Counted from the stretch's first letter, positions 1,999 to 52,914 are shown. The stretch: DNA of 64,000 nucleotides from Candidatus Zixiibacteriota bacterium (GCA_035380245.1 DAOSXA010000001.1:358004-422003), one strand, 5' to 3'. The notes: generated by a model from the letters alone, not told the origin. Program-made: numbers and translations.

Positions 1999-4593
1999 CT
2001 ACATTATTACAACCAGTTTACCAATCTGGGTGTCGCGTCCGGGGGCATCCACCGTCCAGTAATAAATCCCCGAAACTACCATCTGTGTGTTCCGCGTGAT
2101 CATATTCCAGCTTTCATGGGTATCAGCCCCACTGCCGGCAACTTCATCATGCTCGATTTCGCGGACCATGTCGCCGTCGAGTGTAAAAATCCTGATGGTG
2201 CACTTCGGCGGCAGATTGGCAAAATGTATTTCCCTGGTACGATCCGGCGGACGGTCGGTGTCGACGCGGCCTTCATAACCGCGATCGCGATAACCGGCAT
2301 CAATACGATAGGGATTCGGATAGACATACACTTCCAGATTCTGGTTCTGAACATTATCCCAGCTTGCGATCGGATAAACCAACTGAGCATTGTTGGATAC
2401 TGATGTTTCGAGTGATCCAAGGCCGGTTGCCGGAGAACCATAGTCGAAGGCGGTCACGTTGACATAATACTGAACCGTTGGCAACAGATCGTCGAGAACA
2501 TACTCATATTCATAGTATTTATAATAACCGTCGTCGGTAGTATCCGCAGCGTTAATTGAATCGAGGTTGGGTTCATCCTGGAAAGGATAGATTTTGTGAA
2601 TACCGGTGTTCACACCAAGAATTGACGCATTATAATCCTGGGGTTCGAATATGAACACTGACTCCGGATAATCCGGGTGTACGTACGGATGACTGCGAGT
2701 ATAATCGAGGGGATCGAACTCGGTGTCATTACAGGAACTGCCATAGAGACAACGCAATTGTTCAATAGTGAACGGAGTCTCCTTGAGTTCAAATCCCGGA
2801 TCCGATCCGGCTGCCACATAAACGAGTTTATTATAGTCCTCATGATCGTACGATTGCATCATGGAGAAGCTGGCGGCACGTTCATCCCGCGCCAGATAAA
2901 CGCGATAACCCTCGAAATCCATCTCCCGACTGAAGACGTCTCGCGTAGTCTCCGAATAGAAGCCATTCCAACGAATCCTTAGAGATCCTACATCGTCACG
3001 TTCAACCCAGAATTCCGGCGCCGGCGGCGGAGATGCCCCTCGGAAATCCGGAATACCGTCTCCTTCATACCAGAAAGTATCACAGACAGTCTCTTCCTGC
3101 CCGTTGATCGTTACGGTATTACAGCATTCATGCCACTTGCCGGAGAATGAGTCGCCGTCCGTGTCAACTCCGGGATTATCGTAGACCCAACTGGCCCAGC
3201 GTGAGTTGAGGGCAAGATCGCTGAAATCCAGATTCGCATAAAAGGCATCGGGATTGTACGGCAAGTTGTTAAGGGCATTGTTCTCGTCCTGATGAAGATC
3301 TTCACCTCCGACGTATGCAAACGAAAGCGGGAGAGTCTGCCCCGGATTGATATCGAACGGACCGAATGAAATAAGATAACGAGTGTCATATCCGTCGGCA
3401 AAATCATCCGCCAGATCCTGGTTGGGGTAAAGCCAGAGAGTATCATTTACCTGAATCGAGGCGGTGTAGACCTGGTCGTAGTCAAACTCGCGATTGCGCA
3501 TGACATAGTATTTTTCTTCATCACCGACCGGAGTACCGAGATTACCGTGACGGAAAGTTCGAAACGGCTCGGCCAGTCGACCGACATTGGCTTTCTCGCG
3601 AGGGCCGAAATCCAGTGCGGCCGAAGTATTACCGATCCACCAGTTGAAACTGACATCCAACGACTCAGCCGGGGTACGTACGATTCGTGTCGCTGTCACA
3701 TTAGGACAGGGCTGCTTCGTGTCGCTCCCTGCCGGCAGGTAGCTGAAGTCACCATCGTTGTCGGCAATGAAAGCGGCGAAAACCGTATCGAGAAAAGTGC
3801 AATTGCCGTATTCGGCCGGATACGTCTCCATGAAACCACATATATCGTCCTGTGCGCCGTCAGAGGTTCTCCCTTCAAAAGCGACATCGGCATCAACGTA
3901 AATACCCATGTACACATCCTGAAGGTTCGAGGTGCCGATATTGGTAATCTTATAATCGAACAGGACGAAATCTTCGGCATAAGCGTAAGACCAGGCGTAG
4001 GTCGCCTGAGTTATCTCGATATCGAGCGGCTGATGCGGCTTGCCGGCAACATCAGTAATCAATCCAACTAACAATGTATCGGAGTAGGTCGCAATATAGT
4101 CCTGTTCCGAGATAGCGCCATCATATTCAGGGGCATTGGGATCACGAATAGACCGATATATAATATCCCCAAAGGGAGATTCATCCGGGGCAAATTCAGA
4201 CTCGACTGAATTCCAGCCGTCGGCTCCTAGCGAAACGAGGGTATCGCGATCAACCACCGCCCCGATCCAGAACGCAGCACCGTAAAGATACGAGATTCTT
4301 GAACCTATAGGATACTCACACGACGCTACTTCTTCACCGGTAAAGCAGTCAACTGCCTGTCCTTCCGCGTACTTAATCCCGAACGTCCCGTTGTTGTTCA
4401 CTCCCAACTCGATTTTGCCGACATTGTGACCGACCAGGCAATAAGCCGGTAATGCGGCTAATCCTCCCGGTTCTTTGCTTTGCTCGGAAACACCCGGAGC
4501 AGTTCGGGGAAACGCAACTGTCGCCAACCCTACGACAATGGCCAAACTCCCTGCGCACTCTCTAAAATATCGACTCATTCTCATAAACCACAC
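1999..4593 (-). CDS. Large secreted protein of unknown function with T9SS-like (FlgD-Ig-like) C-terminal sorting domain; paralog 1
   Basis: 864 aa with a signal-like N-terminus. No catalytic motif recognised. Asp-rich NPGVDTDGD stretch. The C-terminal ~110 aa carry YPNPY...CTIRIFTLDGDMV...VSGIYYWTV...GKLVVIM. Colinear with 4746-7340. Confidence 0.85.
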   Translation of the reverse strand: MWFMRMSRYFRECAGSLAIVVGLATVAFPRTAPGVSEQSKEPGGLAALPAYCLVGHNVGKIELGVNNNGTFGIKYAEGQAVDCFTGEEVASCEYPIGSRISYLYGAAFWIGAVVDRDTLVSLGADGWNSVESEFAPDESPFGDIIYRSIRDPNAPEYDGAISEQDYIATYSDTLLVGLITDVAGKPHQPLDIEITQATYAWSYAYAEDFVLFDYKITNIGTSNLQDVYMGIYVDADVAFEGRTSDGAQDDICGFMETYPAEYGNCTFLDTVFAAFIADNDGDFSYLPAGSDTKQPCPNVTATRIVRTPAESLDVSFNWWIGNTSAALDFGPREKANVGRLAEPFRTFRHGNLGTPVGDEEKYYVMRNREFDYDQVYTASIQVNDTLWLYPNQDLADDFADGYDTRYLISFGPFDINPGQTLPLSFAYVGGEDLHQDENNALNNLPYNPDAFYANLDFSDLALNSRWASWVYDNPGVDTDGDSFSGKWHECCNTVTINGQEETVCDTFWYEGDGIPDFRGASPPPAPEFWVERDDVGSLRIRWNGFYSETTRDVFSREMDFEGYRVYLARDERAASFSMMQSYDHEDYNKLVYVAAGSDPGFELKETPFTIEQLRCLYGSSCNDTEFDPLDYTRSHPYVHPDYPESVFIFEPQDYNASILGVNTGIHKIYPFQDEPNLDSINAADTTDDGYYKYYEYEYVLDDLLPTVQYYVNVTAFDYGSPATGLGSLETSVSNNAQLVYPIASWDNVQNQNLEVYVYPNPYRIDAGYRDRGYEGRVDTDRPPDRTREIHFANLPPKCTIRIFTLDGDMVREIEHDEVAGSGADTHESWNMITRNTQMVVSGIYYWTVDAPGRDTQIGKLVVIM

Positions 4594-4745: not shown

Positions 4746-7340
4746 TTACATAATCACAACCAGCTTGCCGATTTGAGTCTCACCGGTCGAAGACTCAACG
4801 GTCCAGTAGTAAATACCGGAAACGACCATCTGGGTGTTACGGGTAATCATGTTCCATGACTCATGTGTATCGGTACCGCTACCGGTATCTTCATTATGTT
4901 CCAATTCACGCACCAAGTCGCCGTCAAGTGTATAAATACGGATAGTGCACTTGGGCGGCAGATTCGCAAAATGGATTTCCCGGGTACGATCCGGCGGGCG
5001 GTCGGTATCGACACGTCCTTCGAAACCACGGTCACGATACCCGGCATCGAGTCGATATGGATTCGGGTATACGTAGACCTCGAGATCATGATTCTGCACA
5101 TCTTCCCAAGACGGCAACGGAAACACTTCCACCGTCCCGCTGGTGACCGATGTCTCCAGCGACGCCAGCCCTGATTCCGGTGAACCGTAATCGAAAGCTG
5201 TGACGTTCACATAATATGGCACGGTCGGGAGCAGATTTTCAATCGTATACTCATACTCGTAGTATTTGAAGTAGCCGTCATCAGTCAGGTAAACAGTATC
5301 ATTCTCAGGAATCTGATCGTTGAGAATCGAGTCAGGAGTCATACCTTCATCCGGCTTGGGAGCCTTCGGATATAACTTGCAAATATCGGTAGTGACCCCC
5401 AGCTCGGAAGCATTGTAGTCCTGCGGTTCAAAGATGAGCATAGAGTCACCCTTCGCATAAGGATGCGAAGTCGTGTAATCTAGAGGATTGAAGTTCTCAT
5501 CATCACAGCTCTCTCCATACCAACAACGCAGGCTGTCAATAATAAACGGTGCTTCATGAAGTTTGTATTCGCCATCTGATCTGTCATAGACCAGCTTGTT
5601 ATAGTTTTCCTGGTCGTAGGACTGCATCATACTATAACTTGCGGCTCTTTCATCACGGGACATATAAACGCGATACCCCTCAAAGTCCGCAATGCGGGAG
5701 AATACATCTTTCGTAGTCTCCGACAGCAAACCGTTCCAGCGAATGTGAATCGTGCTGATTTCCGGACGGGTCACCCAGAACTCCGGAGCCGGCGGCGGAG
5801 AAGCACCCCGGAAATCCGGTACGTTGTCGCCACGAATCCAAATCGTATCGATGACCGCTCCCGTCGAGTCGTATTTCAACAAAGAATCACCGAAATCACC
5901 ATCACCGTCAGTATCCACTCCCGGATTATCGTAAACCCAACTGGCCCAGCGCGCGTTTAGAGCCAGATCCGAGAAGTCCAGATTGGCATAAAATTGATCA
6001 GGATGATCAGGTAAATTCTGTGTAGCGTTACCCTCAACGGTGTGCAATCCTTCACCCGCCACATAGGCAAATGAAATTGGGAGCGTCTGTCCGGCACTAA
6101 TCTCAAATGGTCCAAATGACAGCAAATAACGGGTGTCGTAACCATCGGCGAAATCTGCCGCCAGATCCTGATTAGGATATTGCCAAAGAGTATCGTTGAT
6201 CTGGATAGAAGCCGTATAAATCTGATCGTAGTCAAATTCGCGATTCCGCAACTGGTAATACTTATTGGCATCGCCTTCAGGAGTACCTAAGCCACCAGTC
6301 CGGAAATCACGCCACTCCTCAGCCCAACGACCTTTTCCCGGTCGTTCACGTGGACCGAAATCCAGTGAGGGGTTTCCGTTGCCGATCCACCAGTTGAAAC
6401 TGACATCCAACGAGTCTGACGGCGTACGCACGATACGAGTAGCCGTCACATCAGGACAAGGCATCTTTTGACCGGCATCGTTGGTGTAATCGAAATCACC
6501 ATCGTTGTCGGCAATAAACGCAATAAACACTGTATCCAGATACTCAAGTCCTTCTTGCTCGGTTGGATAAGTCTCAAGGAAACCGCAGATATCATCTTGA
6601 GAACCTACAGCGTCACGTCCGTCGAAAGATACATCGGCATCGACATAAATACCCATGTACACATCGGACAGAAGATCAGTCCCGATATTCGAAATTTTGT
6701 AATCGAACAGTACAAAATCCTCAGCGTACGAATACGACCAGGCATAAGAGGCCTCGGTCACTTCGATATTCAACGGCATATGGGGCCGACCGAAGAAATC
6801 GTTGTCAACACCTTGTGTTAACGTATCCGTATAGACTGAGATGTAATCCTCTTCGGAGATAGCGTCTTCATAAGCATCCGATTCGGGATCAGTAATCGAT
6901 CGGTAGACCATATAGCCGAACGGCGGTTCATCCGGGTACATTTCGTTGGCGGTTTGCCAACCGTCTGCGCCAACCGACACCAACGTATCCCTACCGACTA
7001 CAGCACCAATCCAGAATGCGGCACCGAACAGATATGAAATCTGAGAGTTCTTGGGATACTCACATGAGGGGACTTCTTCTCCGGTGAAACAGTCGACCGC
7101 CTGACCGACCGTATACTGATTACCGAACGTCCCATTGTTGTTCACGCCCAGTTCGATCTTTCCAACACGGTGCCCTGCCAGACAGTGGGCAGGCGACAGA
7201 GACATGTAACCCAGATCGTTCCTGCGTTGATCCGCCTCGAGGCTCATTCGGCCGAACGCATCCGCGGCCAGAACCACTAACATCACTAAAGTGATCAGGA
7301 TCAGAGTTGTTTTACGATAAAGCATAATCCTCGCGCGCAT
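4746..7340 (-). CDS. Large secreted protein of unknown function with T9SS-like C-terminal sorting domain; paralog 2
   Basis: 864 aa with a signal peptide (LILITLVMLVVLAADAFG). Aligns end to end with 1999-4593. The C-terminal domain is nearly identical (YPNPYRLDAGYRDRGFEGRVDTDRPPDRTREIHFANLPPKCTIRIYTLDGD...GKLVVIM). Confidence 0.85.
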   Translation of the reverse strand: MRARIMLYRKTTLILITLVMLVVLAADAFGRMSLEADQRRNDLGYMSLSPAHCLAGHRVGKIELGVNNNGTFGNQYTVGQAVDCFTGEEVPSCEYPKNSQISYLFGAAFWIGAVVGRDTLVSVGADGWQTANEMYPDEPPFGYMVYRSITDPESDAYEDAISEEDYISVYTDTLTQGVDNDFFGRPHMPLNIEVTEASYAWSYSYAEDFVLFDYKISNIGTDLLSDVYMGIYVDADVSFDGRDAVGSQDDICGFLETYPTEQEGLEYLDTVFIAFIADNDGDFDYTNDAGQKMPCPDVTATRIVRTPSDSLDVSFNWWIGNGNPSLDFGPRERPGKGRWAEEWRDFRTGGLGTPEGDANKYYQLRNREFDYDQIYTASIQINDTLWQYPNQDLAADFADGYDTRYLLSFGPFEISAGQTLPISFAYVAGEGLHTVEGNATQNLPDHPDQFYANLDFSDLALNARWASWVYDNPGVDTDGDGDFGDSLLKYDSTGAVIDTIWIRGDNVPDFRGASPPPAPEFWVTRPEISTIHIRWNGLLSETTKDVFSRIADFEGYRVYMSRDERAASYSMMQSYDQENYNKLVYDRSDGEYKLHEAPFIIDSLRCWYGESCDDENFNPLDYTTSHPYAKGDSMLIFEPQDYNASELGVTTDICKLYPKAPKPDEGMTPDSILNDQIPENDTVYLTDDGYFKYYEYEYTIENLLPTVPYYVNVTAFDYGSPESGLASLETSVTSGTVEVFPLPSWEDVQNHDLEVYVYPNPYRLDAGYRDRGFEGRVDTDRPPDRTREIHFANLPPKCTIRIYTLDGDLVRELEHNEDTGSGTDTHESWNMITRNTQMVVSGIYYWTVESSTGETQIGKLVVIM

Positions 7341-47400: not shown

Positions 47401-47871
47401 GATAAGAAGGGCAACAACATGGCCTTCGTGACTCAGGAAGACTTCACGGGATCGGTCGAGTTAATCATGTTTTCAGATTGCTATGAGAAACACCGACAGT
47501 ATATTGAATCGGATCGGATTGTCCTGACTACCGGCCGGGTTTCTACCCGAGAGGGTGAGGATCCGAAAATCCTTGCCCAGGAAGTAGTTCCTTTGGAAGA
47601 ACTGACGGAACGCTACGATTGTCAGTTGGTTATAAGGATCAATACCGACTGCTCCGATGAAACAATTGACCGCGCCCTTAAATCCCTTGAGGAACACAGC
47701 GGGAAATCACCGGTGCTTCTGGCGGCGCAACACAATGGATCTGAAGTATATATCAGATCAAAGAGGTACGCCGTTAAACCGGATTTCGAGTTGTTAAACG
47801 ACCTAAAAGACTTGCTGGGGGAAACCAGCGCCTACTTTAGACCGTTATCTAAGAACGATGTATCAGCTTAG
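44413..47871 (+). CDS. dnaE: DNA polymerase III alpha subunit
   Basis: 1152 aa. PHP domain start (FVHLHTHTQYSLLDG), LPDIDIDF-type motif (MPDIDIDFADRGR) and FNKAHSTCYA. Confidence 0.98.
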   Translation: MKYANFVHLHTHTQYSLLDGACRIDDAIALAKELKMPALAMTDHGNMFGAIEFYQKAIKAGIKPIIGMEAYVAGGSRHEKSPSQKYPDGGFHLVLLARNLEGYHNLMKLSSYGFLEGFYHRPRVDKELLRKYAGNLIASSACLKGEVNWHLLRGDTEAAVAAARELQDIFGPGNFYLELQNHGIDKELQIIPKIEAIARETGIPLLATNDCHYLRREDAEAHDALLCIQTGKQVSDTDRMRYNTDQIYFKSAEEMEEALGDFKLALENTIKVAEACNLELEMGKMLLPVYPLPKEFTTPEVYLEHICREALPVRYKEVTPEIEERLEYEMGVIKQMGYGGYFLIVRDFCEYSRSHGIRVGPGRGSAAGSLVSYLCGITNVDPIRFELLFERFLNPERISMPDIDIDFADRGRDKIIQYVIEKYGKDNVCQIITFGTMAARGVVRDVGRVLAMPYGEVDKIAKAIPLAIDMTLEKALTAKDSELAKMVKQDKRVEHLIDICKTLEGLARHCSTHAAGVVIAPAPLIDYVPLYKGAKDEVTTQFDMKRVEQIGLLKMDFLGLRTLTVIDDALKMIKQNHPETDIEIDEIPLDDPVVYDIFARGDTIGIFQFESSGMREYLRRLAPENFTDITAMNALYRPGPLDSGMIDEYIKRKKNQLKIEYDHPKLKEILSNTYGIIVFQEHVLKIANQLAGYSLGKADILRKAMGKKDANLMAQQRREFMKGAEEQKVDAKVAEEIFDQIETFARYGFNKAHSTCYAFVAYQTAWLKHYYPQEFMAALMSSEISDADRIRILMEECRRMGIKVLPPDVNESEVDFSVVDGNIRFGLLAIKNVGSNPATAIVEERRENGPFIDIADLAERVAPKSINRRVLESIIAAGACDSLPGHRSQQHAAVEAMLEFGHKAAVQSASHDLFAGSGGKVERVAPSLPDIPEWSNSDRLNREKGVLGFYVSGHPLERYRESLRFFSSTDSAALKSVPDDREVTIGGIITQVKTMIDKKGNNMAFVTQEDFTGSVELIMFSDCYEKHRQYIESDRIVLTTGRVSTREGEDPKILAQEVVPLEELTERYDCQLVIRINTDCSDETIDRALKSLEEHSGKSPVLLAAQHNGSEVYIRSKRYAVKPDFELLNDLKDLLGETSAYFRPLSKNDVSA

Positions 47872-47884
47872 CGAATGGAGCCGT

Positions 47885-48415
47885 ATGAGATTTTTGATCA
47901 CCTCAGCCCTGCTTCTGCTCCTCACCGTTTCAACGGCCGGAGCAGACGAACAGAAAAACGACCAAAAGGGCGCTGAACCTTCCGCTACAGAAATCAACTG
48001 GATGAAATACGACGAAGGACTGGCCGCCGCCAAGGAAAACGGCAAGCATATCTTAGCCAATTTCACGACCGGCTGGTGCGGCTTTTGCAAAAAAATGAAC
48101 AAAACGACCTTTGTCGATCCGGCTATCGTAGCCGCCATAAATAAGGATTTCGTCGCCGTTAAGATCGATGGTGACTCTCGTGACACCCTCGACATCGACG
48201 GCTACAAGATCACCGAACGGGATCTCGCCAAAGCCGTCTATCGCGTCGGAGGTTATCCCACCTATTGGTTCCTCGAATCCGACGGGACTAAACTTGGCGC
48301 TTTACGTGGCTATCAGAGTTCAGCCCAATTGGCTCAAGCCTTGAAGATCGTCTCGGAAAGACAATACGAGAAACCACCAACTGAAGACCAAAAAGCCGAT
48401 AGCTCGGGGCAATAA
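47885..48415 (+). CDS. Secreted thioredoxin-fold protein (DUF255/Thioredoxin_7-like)
   Basis: Start moved to ATG 47885 (GGAG 4 nt upstream; signal peptide MRFLITSALLLLLTVSTAGA). CxxC motif in TTGWCGFCKKM. Confidence 0.8.
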   Translation: MRFLITSALLLLLTVSTAGADEQKNDQKGAEPSATEINWMKYDEGLAAAKENGKHILANFTTGWCGFCKKMNKTTFVDPAIVAAINKDFVAVKIDGDSRDTLDIDGYKITERDLAKAVYRVGGYPTYWFLESDGTKLGALRGYQSSAQLAQALKIVSERQYEKPPTEDQKADSSGQ

Positions 48416-48463
48416 ACAGCCGACAGACTGACCTGTGATCAAACTGAAAGGAAACGACCATTG

Positions 48464-49018
48464 ATGAAGAAGATCTTGATGATAGGCCCTTCCCTGATAG
48501 CGTTGTTGGTGTTCGGCTGCGGTAGTTCCGACACCACCCAGGAACACAACTCCGGGACACAGGCAGCGGCACAAAGCACGACTACACAGAGTAAAGTACC
48601 CGCCTCCACCGGGACAACCGTTTCGTTTGCGGCGTATGATGTCGATGGTTTTTTACACCAGTCCGATGAGTGGATCGGTAAACAGCCGGTGGTGATTAAT
48701 TTCTGGGGCACCTGGTGTCCCCCCTGTCGTGCCGAAATACCCGATCTCGTACGTATTTACAACGATTACCGCGACAAGGGAATTGAGTTAGTCGGCATTG
48801 CCGTCAGGGACCAACCGAACAACGTCAAGCAGTTCGCCGGAAAAAACGGCATGGACTGGCCCATGCTCATGGTTGATGAGAATGTTATAGCCGGTTTCCC
48901 GGATATACGGAATGTGCCGACCACGATCTTCTTCGACCGCAACGGCAACGAAGTACAAAGGTTTGTCGGTGGTCGCGATTACGAAACTTTCAAGCAGGCT
49001 TTCGAACAAATTCTCTAG
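48464..49018 (+). CDS. TlpA/ResA-like thiol-disulfide oxidoreductase lipoprotein
   Basis: Lipobox LLVFGC. WGTWCPPCRAEIP active site. Confidence 0.88.
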   Translation: MKKILMIGPSLIALLVFGCGSSDTTQEHNSGTQAAAQSTTTQSKVPASTGTTVSFAAYDVDGFLHQSDEWIGKQPVVINFWGTWCPPCRAEIPDLVRIYNDYRDKGIELVGIAVRDQPNNVKQFAGKNGMDWPMLMVDENVIAGFPDIRNVPTTIFFDRNGNEVQRFVGGRDYETFKQAFEQIL

Positions 49019-49042
49019 CTCGAAAACGAATCTGATATAACA

Positions 49043-49078
49043 AACGGGCGCAACCTGATAAGGCTGCACCCGTTTTTA
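49043..49078 (+). terminator. Terminator between convergent genes
   Basis: aacgggcgca / tgcacccgtt stem (one mismatch), then TTTTATTTAT. Confidence 0.6.
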
Positions 49079-49096
49079 TTTATGCCATATAACGGA

Positions 49097-50116
49097 CTAA
49101 GCCGGTTGTTGGCTGTCACTGAAGAACAACTTCAGCATGTACCAGATTAATCCCAAAGCCAGTACGAAACAAAGCACGAAAACGATCAAGACCGACCATT
49201 GCGACCGGATCGGGATATTAGCCGGGTCCCAGAATTTCTGAAGATGAACAAGCCGCAGAACATGACGGGCCGAAACCATGGCCAGCATGGAAACGAAAAC
49301 CATCAGCCCGGATATCGCGAACTTCCTCTTGAAAAAGAAATGCAGTGAACCGAGCGACAGAATAAAGCCAACCGTCACGAGCCAGATTCCGGAACTTTGC
49401 ATAAACGGAACGAGATAATCACCCAGCGTGAATAAATAAATCAGCCCCATAACCATTGCCGCCAACATCCCGCAGAGAAAGAACTTCTTGCCGATTTGAT
49501 ACATGGCCTGACTTTTCCGGCCGATCCAGCCGACAAAGAACGCCCCGACGGTAATAGCTCCCAGGATCATGTGAAACCAGCGCACCAGATAGGAACCGAC
49601 CTCGGGATTCAACACGAAACCGGACTGGTTACCGGAGTACAATTGTTGCGTCAGTAAAGGATTCTCGGAGAGGCTGAACGATGAACTGTAAACGAACGAG
49701 ACATATGCCATCCCGAGCATTGCCAGACCCAGATAGATCCCGACCCGCTCCCTGGATTTAGTGAACGATGCTCCGTAAAGGAAATAGTACGAAAACATCA
49801 CAGCGGCTAAAATCACCAGCCAGGGCCAGGCCGTTACGATGGTCGAGGCGTAAACCTGCTTATGGAAAGTTAACTGTACGAACAGAAGCGGCGCCACCCC
49901 TATCGTAATCGTTGCGGCCATCAGCGTCGGAAACAGCTTAACGAAACGCTGGATCGATTCATCCTGCCATTTATTGTTGAACTTAGCCAGCAATAATACC
50001 AGACCGCCGCCCAGGACGAAATTCATAGCTGCTAAATGCAGCGTCAGCGTCAGGATATGCAAAACCGTGATCAACCAGAGCGGGGCCGACAGAAAGTTGT
50101 AGTCGGGAAGGTTCAT
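49097..50116 (-). CDS. Polytopic membrane protein; N-terminus paralogous to the upstream CydA-like protein
   Basis: 339 aa with about 9 hydrophobic helices. The N-terminal WLITVLHILTLTLHLAAMNFVLGGGL mirrors IAVIHVFVSHFAIGGGL of 50113-51633. 4-nt ATGA overlap with that gene. Confidence 0.75.
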   Translation of the reverse strand: MNLPDYNFLSAPLWLITVLHILTLTLHLAAMNFVLGGGLVLLLAKFNNKWQDESIQRFVKLFPTLMAATITIGVAPLLFVQLTFHKQVYASTIVTAWPWLVILAAVMFSYYFLYGASFTKSRERVGIYLGLAMLGMAYVSFVYSSSFSLSENPLLTQQLYSGNQSGFVLNPEVGSYLVRWFHMILGAITVGAFFVGWIGRKSQAMYQIGKKFFLCGMLAAMVMGLIYLFTLGDYLVPFMQSSGIWLVTVGFILSLGSLHFFFKRKFAISGLMVFVSMLAMVSARHVLRLVHLQKFWDPANIPIRSQWSVLIVFVLCFVLALGLIWYMLKLFFSDSQQPA

Positions 50117-51633
50117 AGTGCACCTCCTTCCGCAGCTTTAGTCTTAAACATGAGAAATTCCACGAAAGCTGCCGCCTCAGTGCTGTCGCCCGTAAACGGC
50201 GGCATCTCCTCGGCCAGATCACCGGCCATTTCGAGCAGGTCATAGATGTCCTGTTCACTGAGCCCCAGAATCGACGATGATTTATCATTATACCCGCCAA
50301 AAACATGGCATTTGCCGCAGCGCAGGTCATACACCTTTCGTCCCAGATCAACTCTCGAAAGACCGTAAATCTCAGCCACTGACCTATGATCCGTGTGCTT
50401 GTAAATATGGGCAGCGAGTAATCCGGCTTCATCTTCATTTCCGAGGAAGGGCGGCATGTTGCCGCGCATGACATGCAAACCGACCATCGTATTGGCAATG
50501 AGCTCTTCATCCATACCGTCATAAGCCGGCTTGAGCGCCTTGTAACCGTCGACCGTATGACAGGAGCGACAGGCATGACGAAACAAATCCGCACCGTCGT
50601 CGCCAGTACGGTATTTCATATTCAGCAAGAGTCCCTCCTGGAGATACTGATCGGCCCTGGCTACCTCCATACCGTTACCGTACATGTAATCGGAGACGAC
50701 ATACGGCTTGCGAACCGATTCGCGGAAGAATTCAAAAGCTCCAAACCACACCAATCCCAGCGCCATCATCACCAGCGCTACCGGCAGGGAAACCGCTTTA
50801 CGCAGCAACAGGCCAAACAGCAGCACCAGGACCGCCACGGCAATCAGCAGCTTGAAAGTCAGCCCCCAGGAAATAATCGGAGTCGGCATCATATTGAGCG
50901 CCGTCTGGGTGATATTGGCCGGGATGGATGCCCAGTACCAAAAGAGACTCGGGACCATGATTACCAAACCGACTATCGCCCACCAGGCATTGTAAGTCAC
51001 CGTGCGTCTTTTGAAATCGTCCGATTTACGCACACTGACTACTAAAAGGGCAAACAGACCGGCCAGCATGACACAAATACCCGTCCTCAGGATAAGCGAA
51101 GAGAAGAAAGTCGGATTGAAGAAACCGTCCCAGAAACTTCCGGTAACGATCCAGTCTCCCGGCGAGAGCATAAAACTGAGGATGCCGTTAATAATAAACA
51201 GCGACATCCAGGCCGCTCCGAAATAAATCCAGCCAACGGTCATATGGTTCCTCGCCGACATCGACTTCCAACCATACAGGTAGATTATGGCCGCCATGAT
51301 TTCGATGAGGAAAAAACACCATTCGGTGGCCCAGCCCCAGACGAAATTGTGGATTAATAATTCCGTGGCCGCCGGATTAAGCAGACCGATAATGAACCAG
51401 ATCCCAACACCGGTCAGGGCGCCGAACACCAGGGTGGTCAGTACGAAAAATTTGCTCAGACCCTGAAGAAACCCCAAGGCATCGGCATCGTTTTTCCTCC
51501 GGGCTCGAGTTTCCGCCACGGCCAGATAAAGGCCCCCTCCGATGGCGAAATGCGAGACGAAGACATGGATCACTGCGATACCGGCCATCAACCAGCCGTA
51601 TGACAGACCGGTGTCCCAAAAAGGATAGTCCAT
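50113..51633 (-). CDS. Cytochrome-bd-subunit-I-like membrane domain fused to two class-I c-type cytochrome domains
   Basis: 506 aa with about 8 TM helices. The N-terminal MDYPFWDTGLSYGWLMAGIAVIHVFVSHFAIGGGLYL is CydA-like by eye. The C-terminal ~165 aa (nt 50116-50616) carry CRSCH...GNMPPF and CGKCH...EEMPPF. Confidence 0.7.
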   Translation of the reverse strand: MDYPFWDTGLSYGWLMAGIAVIHVFVSHFAIGGGLYLAVAETRARRKNDADALGFLQGLSKFFVLTTLVFGALTGVGIWFIIGLLNPAATELLIHNFVWGWATEWCFFLIEIMAAIIYLYGWKSMSARNHMTVGWIYFGAAWMSLFIINGILSFMLSPGDWIVTGSFWDGFFNPTFFSSLILRTGICVMLAGLFALLVVSVRKSDDFKRRTVTYNAWWAIVGLVIMVPSLFWYWASIPANITQTALNMMPTPIISWGLTFKLLIAVAVLVLLFGLLLRKAVSLPVALVMMALGLVWFGAFEFFRESVRKPYVVSDYMYGNGMEVARADQYLQEGLLLNMKYRTGDDGADLFRHACRSCHTVDGYKALKPAYDGMDEELIANTMVGLHVMRGNMPPFLGNEDEAGLLAAHIYKHTDHRSVAEIYGLSRVDLGRKVYDLRCGKCHVFGGYNDKSSSILGLSEQDIYDLLEMAGDLAEEMPPFTGDSTEAAAFVEFLMFKTKAAEGGAL

Positions 51634-51827
51634 GAATCACTCTCCGTGTATGGTAAGCTCAACCTAGCTTTGTTTTATCTTAGTAAGTGCCCCCAAAGGC
51701 GTCAAGTTTTGTTAAATTGTCGCCTTCGTAAATCTATATATAGTCCACACTTAAGGTCAAGTGAGACATCATCTTTAACTATAACTGTAAGATAGTTAAA
51801 ATCTTCTTTACTGAGGAGAAAGCAAAA

Positions 51828-52262
51828 TCAAACATTGCTGGAGTCGCGCTTGGAGAAATATAGGATATCCTCATGGTAGCTGTAACCCATTTTCCCAAAC
51901 AACGCCATTGAAGGTAAATTCTGTCCTTCGATCAGACAGGCAATAACTTGCGCTCCGAGCCCCCGAAGAAACCTCTCCCCGGCTTCGACAATTTCCACCG
52001 CCAGACCACGACCGCGGCAGTCCGGATCTACCGCGACCCGGTTGATCCATCCCTTGCGACCGTCGTAAGTCATCACTCCAACCGCCACCATGCGGTCGTC
52101 TTCGAACAATCCGTAGAAAGCCGTATCGGAACGTTCCATTTCGCTGTTGATATGTTCGCGACTGTCCCGTCCGTCGGGACGATACGGCAATCCGGCATCG
52201 GCCCAAACCCGGATAATGTCGTCGTAATCATCGGGAGTCAGTTGTCTTATGCGGTTTTCCAT
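51828..52262 (-). CDS. GNAT-family N-acetyltransferase
   Basis: 144 aa. WINRVAVDPDCRGRGLAVEIVEAGERFLRGLGA is the acetyl-CoA-binding motif A. Confidence 0.88.
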   Translation of the reverse strand: MENRIRQLTPDDYDDIIRVWADAGLPYRPDGRDSREHINSEMERSDTAFYGLFEDDRMVAVGVMTYDGRKGWINRVAVDPDCRGRGLAVEIVEAGERFLRGLGAQVIACLIEGQNLPSMALFGKMGYSYHEDILYFSKRDSSNV

Positions 52263-52914
52263 ATTTCTCCGTGAGAATTTCTTCGAGCCAGGTCATACTG
52301 AATTCAGACGCACAAGGTTGGTTCTGCCAGTGTTCACAGCCGCTGAAGTTTAACAGAACACCTCGAGCCGGAACTTCGACCTCAGCCGCCGAGCGCATAC
52401 CGGCAGCCAGCATATTGATACAAGCTACCCCGATTACTCCGTAATCCCCCAACTCATCTCGATAGTGTTTCAACTGCTGCTCCAAATTCCGTTTGGAGAA
52501 TACTGCCGGGATATTATAACGATCGGCCAAAGCGACCATCTGATTGGCCTGACAGGAGGGAGTACATTGCCGGCAAATATCACCGAACGGTCCATCTTCC
52601 TTAAGGCAGTCCGGATTATGTAAAGAAAGGCAATCCGGTATAACCAGAAGGGTCTTGGGAGCAGTATTAAAAGCCTCGCGATTGAGATCATCGAGAATTT
52701 GAAAGGAAACCATTTCCAACAGGTATTTAACCTTTGGAGTCCGCCGCAGTCGTTCTCCGCAGTCATCTTTTAAGGCTTGTTCAATATACCGATCCAGACC
52801 GTTAAATTCGCGGGAGAAACGATCATACCCTGAAGATATAAACTCATCGGTAAATTCGCGCAGACGACGTCGGAACGTTGAATCGAGGCAGTAAGTCGGA
52901 GCGGGATTATTCAT
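52228..52914 (-). CDS. DUF116-like Cys-rich protein
   Basis: 228 aa with CLSLHNPDC...CRQCTPSC...VIGVACINML...FSGCEHW. Family assignment is from memory of DUF116 features. Confidence 0.6.
   Translation of the reverse strand: MNNPAPTYCLDSTFRRRLREFTDEFISSGYDRFSREFNGLDRYIEQALKDDCGERLRRTPKVKYLLEMVSFQILDDLNREAFNTAPKTLLVIPDCLSLHNPDCLKEDGPFGDICRQCTPSCQANQMVALADRYNIPAVFSKRNLEQQLKHYRDELGDYGVIGVACINMLAAGMRSAAEVEVPARGVLLNFSGCEHWQNQPCASEFSMTWLEEILTEKYGKPHKTTDSR

Follow-up and report, generated by a model that had tools for sequence, protein, structure and literature searches.

Two adjacent genes, hereafter A and B, lie on the minus strand of a 64,000-nucleotide stretch of DNA from a Candidatus Zixiibacteriota bacterium (GCA_035380245.1 DAOSXA010000001.1:358004-422003), referred to below as the window. 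Gene A encodes a CydA homolog fused to a diheme cytochrome c, gene B encodes a diverged CydA paralog, and the pair is an ordinary OR-C1 member of the cytochrome bd superfamily, a family that has already been published, as has its record in this phylum. Judged from sequence, A and B probably form a two-subunit cytochrome c:O2 oxidoreductase of the OR-C1 branch that would conserve energy by charge separation. To our knowledge, only the quinol-oxidizing function of cytochrome bd oxidases is understood. The superfamily has been split into qOR, OR-C, and OR-N (Murali, Gennis & Hemp 2021, bioRxiv 10.1101/2021.01.16.426971). In that classification, OR-C1a is a CydA with eight transmembrane (TM) helices, no quinol site, and a C-terminal periplasmic heme c extension, OR-C1b is an adjacent paralog, and the family's definers propose cytochrome c as the OR-C1 electron donor (10.1101/2021.01.16.426971). 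The same survey counted 532 OR-C sequences in 24,706 GTDB genomes and recorded OR-C in Zixibacteria (10.1101/2021.01.16.426971).

That gene A encodes a CydA homolog is evident from both profile and fold comparisons. Pfam family PF01654 matched the protein with 49.3 bits (gathering cut-off, 26.2; E = 3.7e-13), residues 14-227 aligning with positions 4-227 of the 418-position profile, and in a fragment comprising residues 230-330, residues 248-318 matched profile positions 305-375 (E = 0.009). Profile positions 228-304 (the Q-loop region) and 376-418 (TM9) have no counterpart in gene A. From this coverage, gene A corresponds to TM1-6 and TM7-8 of CydA without the Q-loop and TM9; the connection between TM6 and TM7, ~13-20 residues in A and B, is ~20 residues long in A. 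The AlphaFold2 model of A contains eight long TM helices and two small helical domains (pLDDT 81; the models of A and B were built from alignments of ~40 sequences), and the first 10 Foldseek matches in the PDB were CydA chains (E values of 1e-6 to 6e-4), with CydB chains next. A first-pass annotation of the window had described gene A as a bd-like open reading frame (ORF) with about eight TM helices and a CydA-like first helix, and the ORF found at those coordinates, the helix count, and the significance of the CydA profile match all agree with that description. Residues 23-35 of gene A are HVFVSHFAIGGGL. The loop between TM1 and TM2 is rich in Arg and Lys, which places the N terminus outside and, after eight helices, the C terminus outside as well. 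Since TM9 has been lost, the eighth helix ends in the periplasm and runs on into two cytochrome c units.

Both of these units are His/Met class-I cytochromes c. The Cytochrome_CBB3 family matched gene A twice (PF13442, two matches; PF00034, one match), the heme-binding motifs CRSCH and CGKCH occupy residues 355-359 and 439-443, and an MPPF sequence follows each of them by ~35 residues. C355, C358, H359, M393, P394, C439, C442, H443, M477, and P478 were invariant in 39 gene A homologs, and the two class-I units read from the motifs in the first-pass annotation stand. CcoP, the diheme subunit of cbb3 oxidase, likewise has two tandem class-I His/Met c domains (PF13442; 8smr_G, E = 0.001). CcoP feeds a terminal oxidase of the unrelated heme-copper superfamily, and its likeness to A is limited to the soluble domain.

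Residue equivalences for gene A were taken from alignments to the CydA proteins of M. smegmatis, E. coli, and Geobacillus, and conservation was counted in 74 diverse A homologs and 78 B homologs. The conserved TM1 histidine of A, H23, aligns with the bd heme ligand CydA His19, as the first-pass annotation had supposed from the appearance of the helix. H23, E104, E111, Y118, S144, M155, R183, E301, E305, R308, and P310 were invariant among the A homologs. E104 and E111, equivalent to the proton-channel glutamates Glu99 and Glu107, are spaced by 6 residues, as in the qOR2-4 type, and H130 and S144 correspond to the cytoplasm-facing proton-channel residues His126 and Ser140. The heme b558 ligands of CydA, His186 and Met393, are represented differently: no conserved His is present at the start of TM5, the His186 position holding only R183, and the CydA Met393 region contains a semi-conserved Met (M249; 46/74). 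At the periplasmic end of TM8, E301, E305, R308, and P310, each conserved in 74/74 homologs, form a motif resembling the E445-x-x-R448-x-P of CydA. The register that pairs E305 with Glu445 was reached indirectly, by way of B and Geobacillus CydA; with diverse profiles, hhalign aligned E305-S-V-R308-K-P310 of A with H285-V-L-R288 of B. The assignment of E305 as a putative Glu445 equivalent is weakly supported.

These residues identify the subfamily. For the OR-C1a reference from Desulfovibrio senegalensis, the published Table S6 lists F183, H24, E105, E112, S145, H131, Y119, Y121, V77, and W80 (10.1101/2021.01.16.426971). Gene A carries H23, E104, E111, S144, H130, Y118, Y120, V76, and W79, which is the Table S6 signature offset by one, E104 and E111 matching E105 and E112 of the reference. 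Thus, the equivalents of H19, E99, E107, S140, H126, and the Tyr-x-Tyr pair are all at the published positions, and A shares with OR-C1 the eight-helix CydA-like core, the C-terminal periplasmic heme c extension, and the lack of a quinol site. The membrane core of A is 41-46% identical to 8-heme proteins of Desulfobulbaceae, Desulfuromonadaceae, and other metagenome-assembled genomes (MAGs), and those proteins share the architecture of the published OR-C1a reference. Like OR-C1b, B adjoins A, is derived from CydA, keeps His19, and is without the two glutamates. The differences are few. The Desulfovibrio reference has eight CxxCH motifs and A has two; OR-C1b is stated in the paper to have 8 TM helices whereas 9 were predicted for B, a minor discrepancy that may reflect the prediction method; and A has its strictly conserved E-x-x-R-x-P where Table S6 gives no Glu445 equivalent for OR-C1a. 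Two features are not listed in Table S6, namely, a His186-type ligand kept by B rather than by A and the Glu445-like motif of A.

Gene B encodes a diverged CydA paralog with a full nine-helix bd fold that stands in the place of subunit II. Its protein, which starts with HILTLTLHLAAMNFVLGGGL, contains no CxxCH motif and matched no Pfam or NCBIfam family; for want of such a model, annotation pipelines call it 'hypothetical.' The AlphaFold2 model has nine long TM helices (pLDDT 91; pTM 0.88), and its best 18 Foldseek matches were CydB and CydA chains, with TM-scores of 0.57-0.72 on the query. The nine helices, the missing heme c motif, and the ATGA overlap with gene A are as the first-pass annotation had given them. 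It had further called B a paralogous membrane subunit, a claim that was upheld by diverse profiles only. A and B showed no similarity by BLASTP, nor by hhalign of narrow (~60% identity) profiles, and these comparisons alone would wrongly have rejected paralogy. Diverse profiles reversed the result: hhalign aligned A and B with a probability of 97.8% (E = 1.2e-12) over 268 columns, from TM1 to TM8, and an independent run gave 95.7%. With the diverse B profile, the sole significant sequence match in the PDB was Geobacillus CydA (5doq_A; E = 0.0012), and with the narrow B profile there was no PDB sequence match. The A-B alignment and the Geobacillus CydA match together mark B as a diverged CydA paralog. 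When the A and B profiles were compared with the individual CydA and CydB sequences of E. coli, hhalign probabilities were low (0.1-7%), and those alignments were used for register only. An exhaustive profile search placed the B family in 1,432 clusters at 50% identity.

An assignment of the pair to the NrfD/ActC type was rejected. No Pfam match to it was found, and in Foldseek the chains of 6btm (ActF, E = 0.17; ActC, E = 0.036) came behind 18-19 bd-oxidase chains; the leading matches were all CydA or CydB chains, in keeping with the bd-like reading of the first-pass annotation. An ordinary CydAB quinol oxidase is suggested by the PF01654 match and by database entries that name some homologs 'cytochrome ubiquinol oxidase subunit I.' Its defining features are missing, however, and this explanation is ruled out: A is without the Q-loop, His186, and TM9, retains only the semi-conserved M249 in the Met393 region, and carries covalent heme c motifs, and neither PF02322 nor PF01654 matched B, B fragments, or any member of the B family (0/57, comprising B and 56 relatives). 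The fold of both subunits is common to A-B and to CydAB (qOR1-3; E. coli 6rko/6rx4, Geobacillus 5doq), and the active-site His and proton-channel residues of subunit I are as in A. Compared with CydAB, A is without the Q-loop, the His186/Met393 site, and TM9 and has heme c fused to it, and B is a His-bearing CydA paralog, not a heme-free CydB, to which PF02322 gives no match.

Two other groups within the superfamily also resemble the pair. CydAA' (qOR4a/qOR4b) of Caldivirga maquilingensis is likewise a heterodimer of two CydA paralogs, and its 'b' partner keeps His19 and is without the proton-channel glutamates. Unlike A, qOR4a still oxidizes quinol and has no heme c, and qOR4b has lost His186 (A190, Table S6), whereas B keeps a His186-type ligand. 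The OR-N 'bd-like oxidases' of Nitrospirota and Nitrospinota, like A-B, have no quinol site, presumably receive their electrons from cytochrome c, and are biochemically uncharacterized. They differ in having 10-14 TM helices, in keeping His186 in their 'a' subunits, and in encoding c-type cytochromes as separate operon genes, not as fusions.

The conserved residues of B may mean that it is more than a structural partner. B His27 aligns with H23 of A and with the TM1 His of Geobacillus CydA (H21, Table S6), which is E. coli His19. R179 and H182, at the start of TM5, were each conserved in 78/78 homologs and align with the Lys-x-x-His of Geobacillus and E. coli CydA. At the end of TM8, R284 and R288 were conserved in 77/78 homologs, and 68/78 have His, Asp, or Glu at position 285; the pairing of this motif with the E-V-G-R of Geobacillus 'EVGRQPW' came from a weak second HMMER domain. 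Met occupies position 239, in the TM6-TM7 loop, in 59/78. B has no equivalents of Glu99 and Glu107: no TM3 Glu is among the positions conserved in the 78 homologs, and the conserved TM3 residues are instead Trp and Tyr (W97, W99, Y110, Y111, and Y114).

One reading of these residues, left open by the first-pass annotation, is that B supplies a b558-like heme and a quinol site and that the pair works as a quinol:cytochrome c oxidoreductase, or in reverse, via the fused c hemes. The R/K-x-x-H of the heme b558 site (H182, 78/78) and the frequent Met in the TM6-TM7 loop (M239, 59/78) fit it. Against this, neither A nor B has a Q-loop, the TM6-TM7 connections being only ~13-20 residues long; A keeps proton-channel glutamates and active-site ligands that such a module would not need; and the c hemes are of the His/Met class-I kind that is typical of electron donors to oxidases. 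We regard a quinol-linked module as quite improbable. Of the earlier description of the pair as quinol- or cytochrome-linked, the second half is favored here, and the first is unlikely, there being no Q-loop in either subunit.

Several observations support a physical complex of A and B: the ATGA overlap with its Shine-Dalgarno sequence (gene B starts 7 nt after GGAGG), the paralogy of the two proteins, a database protein of 859 aa (P0247) that is a direct A-B fusion, and the adjacency of the two genes across genomes. The fusion also puts the N terminus of B in the periplasm. When one genome per species was scanned, B relatives turned up in at least 582 of them; 80 loci were fetched, and 83 nonredundant loci were analyzed for layout. 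An A-type gene adjoins B in 78/83 loci, which span more than 10 phyla. The commonest layout, found in 55/83 loci, is that of the window, A with two CxxCH motifs followed by B. A with a single CxxCH precedes B in 12 of the 83, B precedes an A with eight CxxCH in 7 and an A with two CxxCH in 2, and in 2 further loci A precedes B and is split by frameshifts. The remaining 5/83 have only B, at contig ends or beside fragmented ORFs. In a census of neighbors, every family other than the ResA- and DsbH-like genes was limited to 7 or fewer of the 83 loci, and thus no third subunit, chaperone, or regulator is conserved.

Homologs of gene A form more than 3,000 clusters at 90% identity (8,000 candidates scored). 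The closest full-length ones are ~67% identical, and those with names are mostly from Zixibacteria and other FCB-group MAGs. The 8-heme form, in which B precedes an A of ~880 aa (loci L062, L066, L067, L074, L076, L077, and L086), occurs in Desulfobulbaceae, Desulfuromonadaceae, Bacteroidales, Kapabacteria, Hyphomicrobiales, and other MAGs. A gene for a PsiE-family membrane protein lies just upstream in three B-then-A loci (L062, L066, and L081). In L054, from a Fimbriimonadales MAG, B is intact and the expected A region upstream of 5953-7053 consists of short fragmented ORFs, which may reflect a pseudogenized A or an assembly error. A weak A-profile match upstream in L017 was rejected as a D-Ala-D-Ala carboxypeptidase. 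A distant B relative, P0340, ends in a Tll0287-like heme c domain.

On the reading that A-B is a cytochrome c:O2 oxidoreductase, a periplasmic c-type cytochrome would reduce the fused c hemes of A, which would replace quinol, the Q-loop, and heme b558 as the point of electron entry. Electrons would go on to a high-spin heme pair held by E305 and H23, where O2 would be reduced to water with cytoplasmic protons delivered via E104 and E111. Proton-motive force would arise by charge separation, with no pumping, as in canonical bd oxidases. The habitat is probably oxygen-poor, and the complex may serve to scavenge O2 no less than to respire it.

Several points weigh against this scheme. No purified or assayed OR-C enzyme was found in the literature searched, so that O2 reduction is argued from homology only. 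The family occurs in Desulfobulbaceae, Bacteroidales, and Pontiella, which are usually held to be strict anaerobes, besides aerobes. The equation of E305 with Glu445 depends on a Pfam fragment match with E = 0.009 and a second HMMER domain with an i-Evalue of 71, and Table S6 lists no such equivalent for OR-C1a (Murali, Gennis & Hemp 2021, 10.1101/2021.01.16.426971). Finally, His27 and His182 of B are fully conserved, and B may carry hemes that a simple electron path through A ignores.

The same complex might instead serve an acceptor other than respiratory O2, detoxifying O2, NO, or H2O2 for an anaerobe or reducing another small oxidant. Canonical bd oxidases protect anaerobes and react with NO and H2O2, and the family is present in MAGs of sulfate reducers, Bacteroidales, and Kiritimatiellota. 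We nevertheless consider this unlikely: the complete proton channel and the active-site His, found in 74/74 homologs, are as expected for the proton-consuming reduction of O2 to water, the A-B family also occurs in the aerobic Acidobacteriaceae and in Chthonomonas, and sequence features do not tell acceptors apart.

Within the cytochrome c:O2 oxidoreductase reading, the hemes may be split between the subunits, a possibility that we hold only tentatively. A would be without the low-spin b558 site and keep two high-spin sites (H23 and E305), and B would be a heme-bearing subunit rather than a passive scaffold, giving up to five b/d hemes and two c hemes in all and perhaps a second redox chain or active site. 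B is cast as a heme carrier by H27 (78/78), by the b558-type R-x-x-H with H182 (78/78), by the Met393-like M239 (59/78), and by His, Asp, or Glu at the Glu445 position (68/78). We know of no characterized bd oxidase with hemes in both halves of the pseudo-symmetric dimer. The placing of a b558-type His in B rather than in A gives structural studies a definite hypothesis.

In the literature searched, no subsequent biochemical or structural characterization of OR-C was found, and for Zixibacteria bd oxidases and the expression of acidobacterial oxidases all data found were on canonical cydAB; in a 2026 paper on a bd-I structure, OR-C still figures solely as a class in the phylogeny. The first-pass annotation was accurate in confining reports of such fusions to genomic surveys, the survey being that which defined OR-C1a and OR-C1b (Murali et al. 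2021). OR-C is one of two large bd branches proposed to be fed by cytochrome c. If OR-C enzymes reduce O2, many lineages that are counted as anaerobic or as having no cytochrome c oxidase would have an unrecognized, copper-free one, and readings of oxygen tolerance and micro-oxic respiration from genomes and metagenomes would be affected. The locus itself brings no new principle; its compact form, with two hemes and two genes, is self-contained, and no other layout was as frequent among the fetched loci.

The features of the locus and its flanks are listed in Table 1. Two thioredoxin-fold genes converge on the A-B pair from the opposite strand, as the first-pass annotation had noted for two CxxC thiol-disulfide oxidoreductases. 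On this basis, the module could be coupled to the two thioredoxin-fold proteins, with B serving as the conduit through the membrane in cytochrome c maturation or in the reduction of disulfides, and a distant B relative (P0342) is fused at its C terminus to CusF-like copper-binding and SCO1/SenC domains. We judge this very improbable. The two genes are separated from B by a terminator-like hairpin (-29.7 kcal/mol; z = -5.4), whose predicted folding energy was equaled by 0/200 shuffles, and B has only two cysteines, neither of them among its conserved positions. Within 5 kb of the pair, ResA-like genes are found in 10/83 loci and DsbH-like genes in 7/83, and they are absent, for example, from the loci of Latescibacterota and Kiritimatiellales, which keep only A and B. 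Loci with such genes are mostly those of the Zixibacteria-type gene order (TPR, DUF116, GNAT, A, B, then on the opposite strand the two thioredoxin genes and DnaE), which is common to a complete Zixibacteria genome and few other loci. The tie between these genes and the pair is thus one of lineage-specific synteny; they are neighbors of A-B, not demonstrated parts of the module.

Upstream of A, a perfect palindrome, TTAACTAT-N9-ATAGTTAA, lies just upstream of two sigma-70-like sites that are consensus matches only. The window contains a single copy (chance expectation, 0.10), which may be a regulator-binding site. The DUF116-GNAT arrangement recurs in loci that share the gene order of the window; a functional tie to the oxidase is not evident.

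Table 1. Features of the A-B locus and its flanks, numbered from the first nucleotide of the window.
Feature	Position	Strand	Description
DsbH/DsbD-gamma-like thioredoxin-fold gene	47858-48415	+	CGFC; Pfam and NCBIfam matches
ResA/TlpA/DsbE-like thioredoxin-fold gene	48461-49018	+	CPPC; Pfam and NCBIfam matches
Intrinsic-terminator-like hairpin and U-tract	49035-49074	-	Downstream of B, within the 78 nt between the convergent genes
Gene B	49097-50116	-	ORF, 339 aa; OR-C1b-type partner, 9-TM bd fold, no heme c motif
B R284-H285-V-L-R288	49253-49267	-	TM8 end; alignment partners are R304/E305/R308 of A and the E-x-x-R of CydA 'EVGRQPW'
B R179-W-F-H182	49571-49582	-	Start of TM5; resembles CydA K183-x-x-H186 (heme b558 histidine)
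B His27	50036-50038	-	His19 equivalent; conserved in 78/78; aligned to A His23
Gene A	50113-51633	-	ORF, 506 aa; OR-C1a-type CydA homolog fused to diheme cytochrome c
Translational coupling	50113-50127	-	GGAGG at 50123-50127, then ATGA stop/start overlap at 50113-50116
Cytochrome c unit 2 of A	50125-50361	-	CGKCH at 50305-50319; Met ligand from EEMPPF; second PF13442 stretch; sequence verified
Cytochrome c unit 1 of A	50389-50601	-	CRSCH at 50557-50571; Met393 at 50455-50457; PF13442 and PF00034; sequence verified
A residues 301-311 (EFFRESVRKPY)	50701-50733	-	E305-x-x-R308-x-P310; periplasmic end of TM8; resembles CydA E445-x-x-R448-x-P
A membrane core, residues 1-310	50704-51633	-	8 TM helices, CydA TM1-TM8; Q-loop ~20 residues; no TM9
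A Glu104 to Glu111	51301-51324	-	Glu99/Glu107 proton-channel pair, 6-residue spacing; both conserved in 74/74
A His23	51565-51567	-	Equivalent of E. coli CydA His19, which axially ligates the active-site heme; conserved in 74/74; codon verified
Upstream region of A	51677-51799	-	Two sigma-70-like sites, 51760-51731 and 51705-51677; consensus matches only
Perfect palindrome	51775-51799		Between the GNAT gene and gene A; putative regulator-binding site
DUF116 and GNAT acetyltransferase genes, overlapping	51828-52914	-	Directly upstream of A, same strand

Elsewhere in the window, a decaheme c-type cytochrome is encoded at 157-1110 on the minus strand (317 aa; 10 CxxCH motifs; NrfB-, c3-, and MtrC-like Pfam matches), adjoining a TetR-like ORF at 1228-1728 on the same strand. 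Besides gene A, it is the only ORF of at least 90 aa in the window with a CxxCH motif. The first-pass annotation had suggested a connection of the pair to a multiheme cytochrome inventory; this sole multiheme cytochrome of the window lies 49 kb from the bd-like pair. Two tandem minus-strand ORFs at 1999-4593 and 4746-7340, of 864 aa each, are 67% identical, have no Pfam match, and stem from a recent tandem duplication; the large protein that they encode is unannotated, and by eye its N terminus resembles a signal peptide. Next to each other on the minus strand are genes for a Porphyromonas-type peptidyl-arginine deiminase (PAD_porph; 7808-10753) and a 1,758-aa C25 gingipain-family peptidase (10938-16214), the same pairing of enzymes that works together in Porphyromonas gingivalis.

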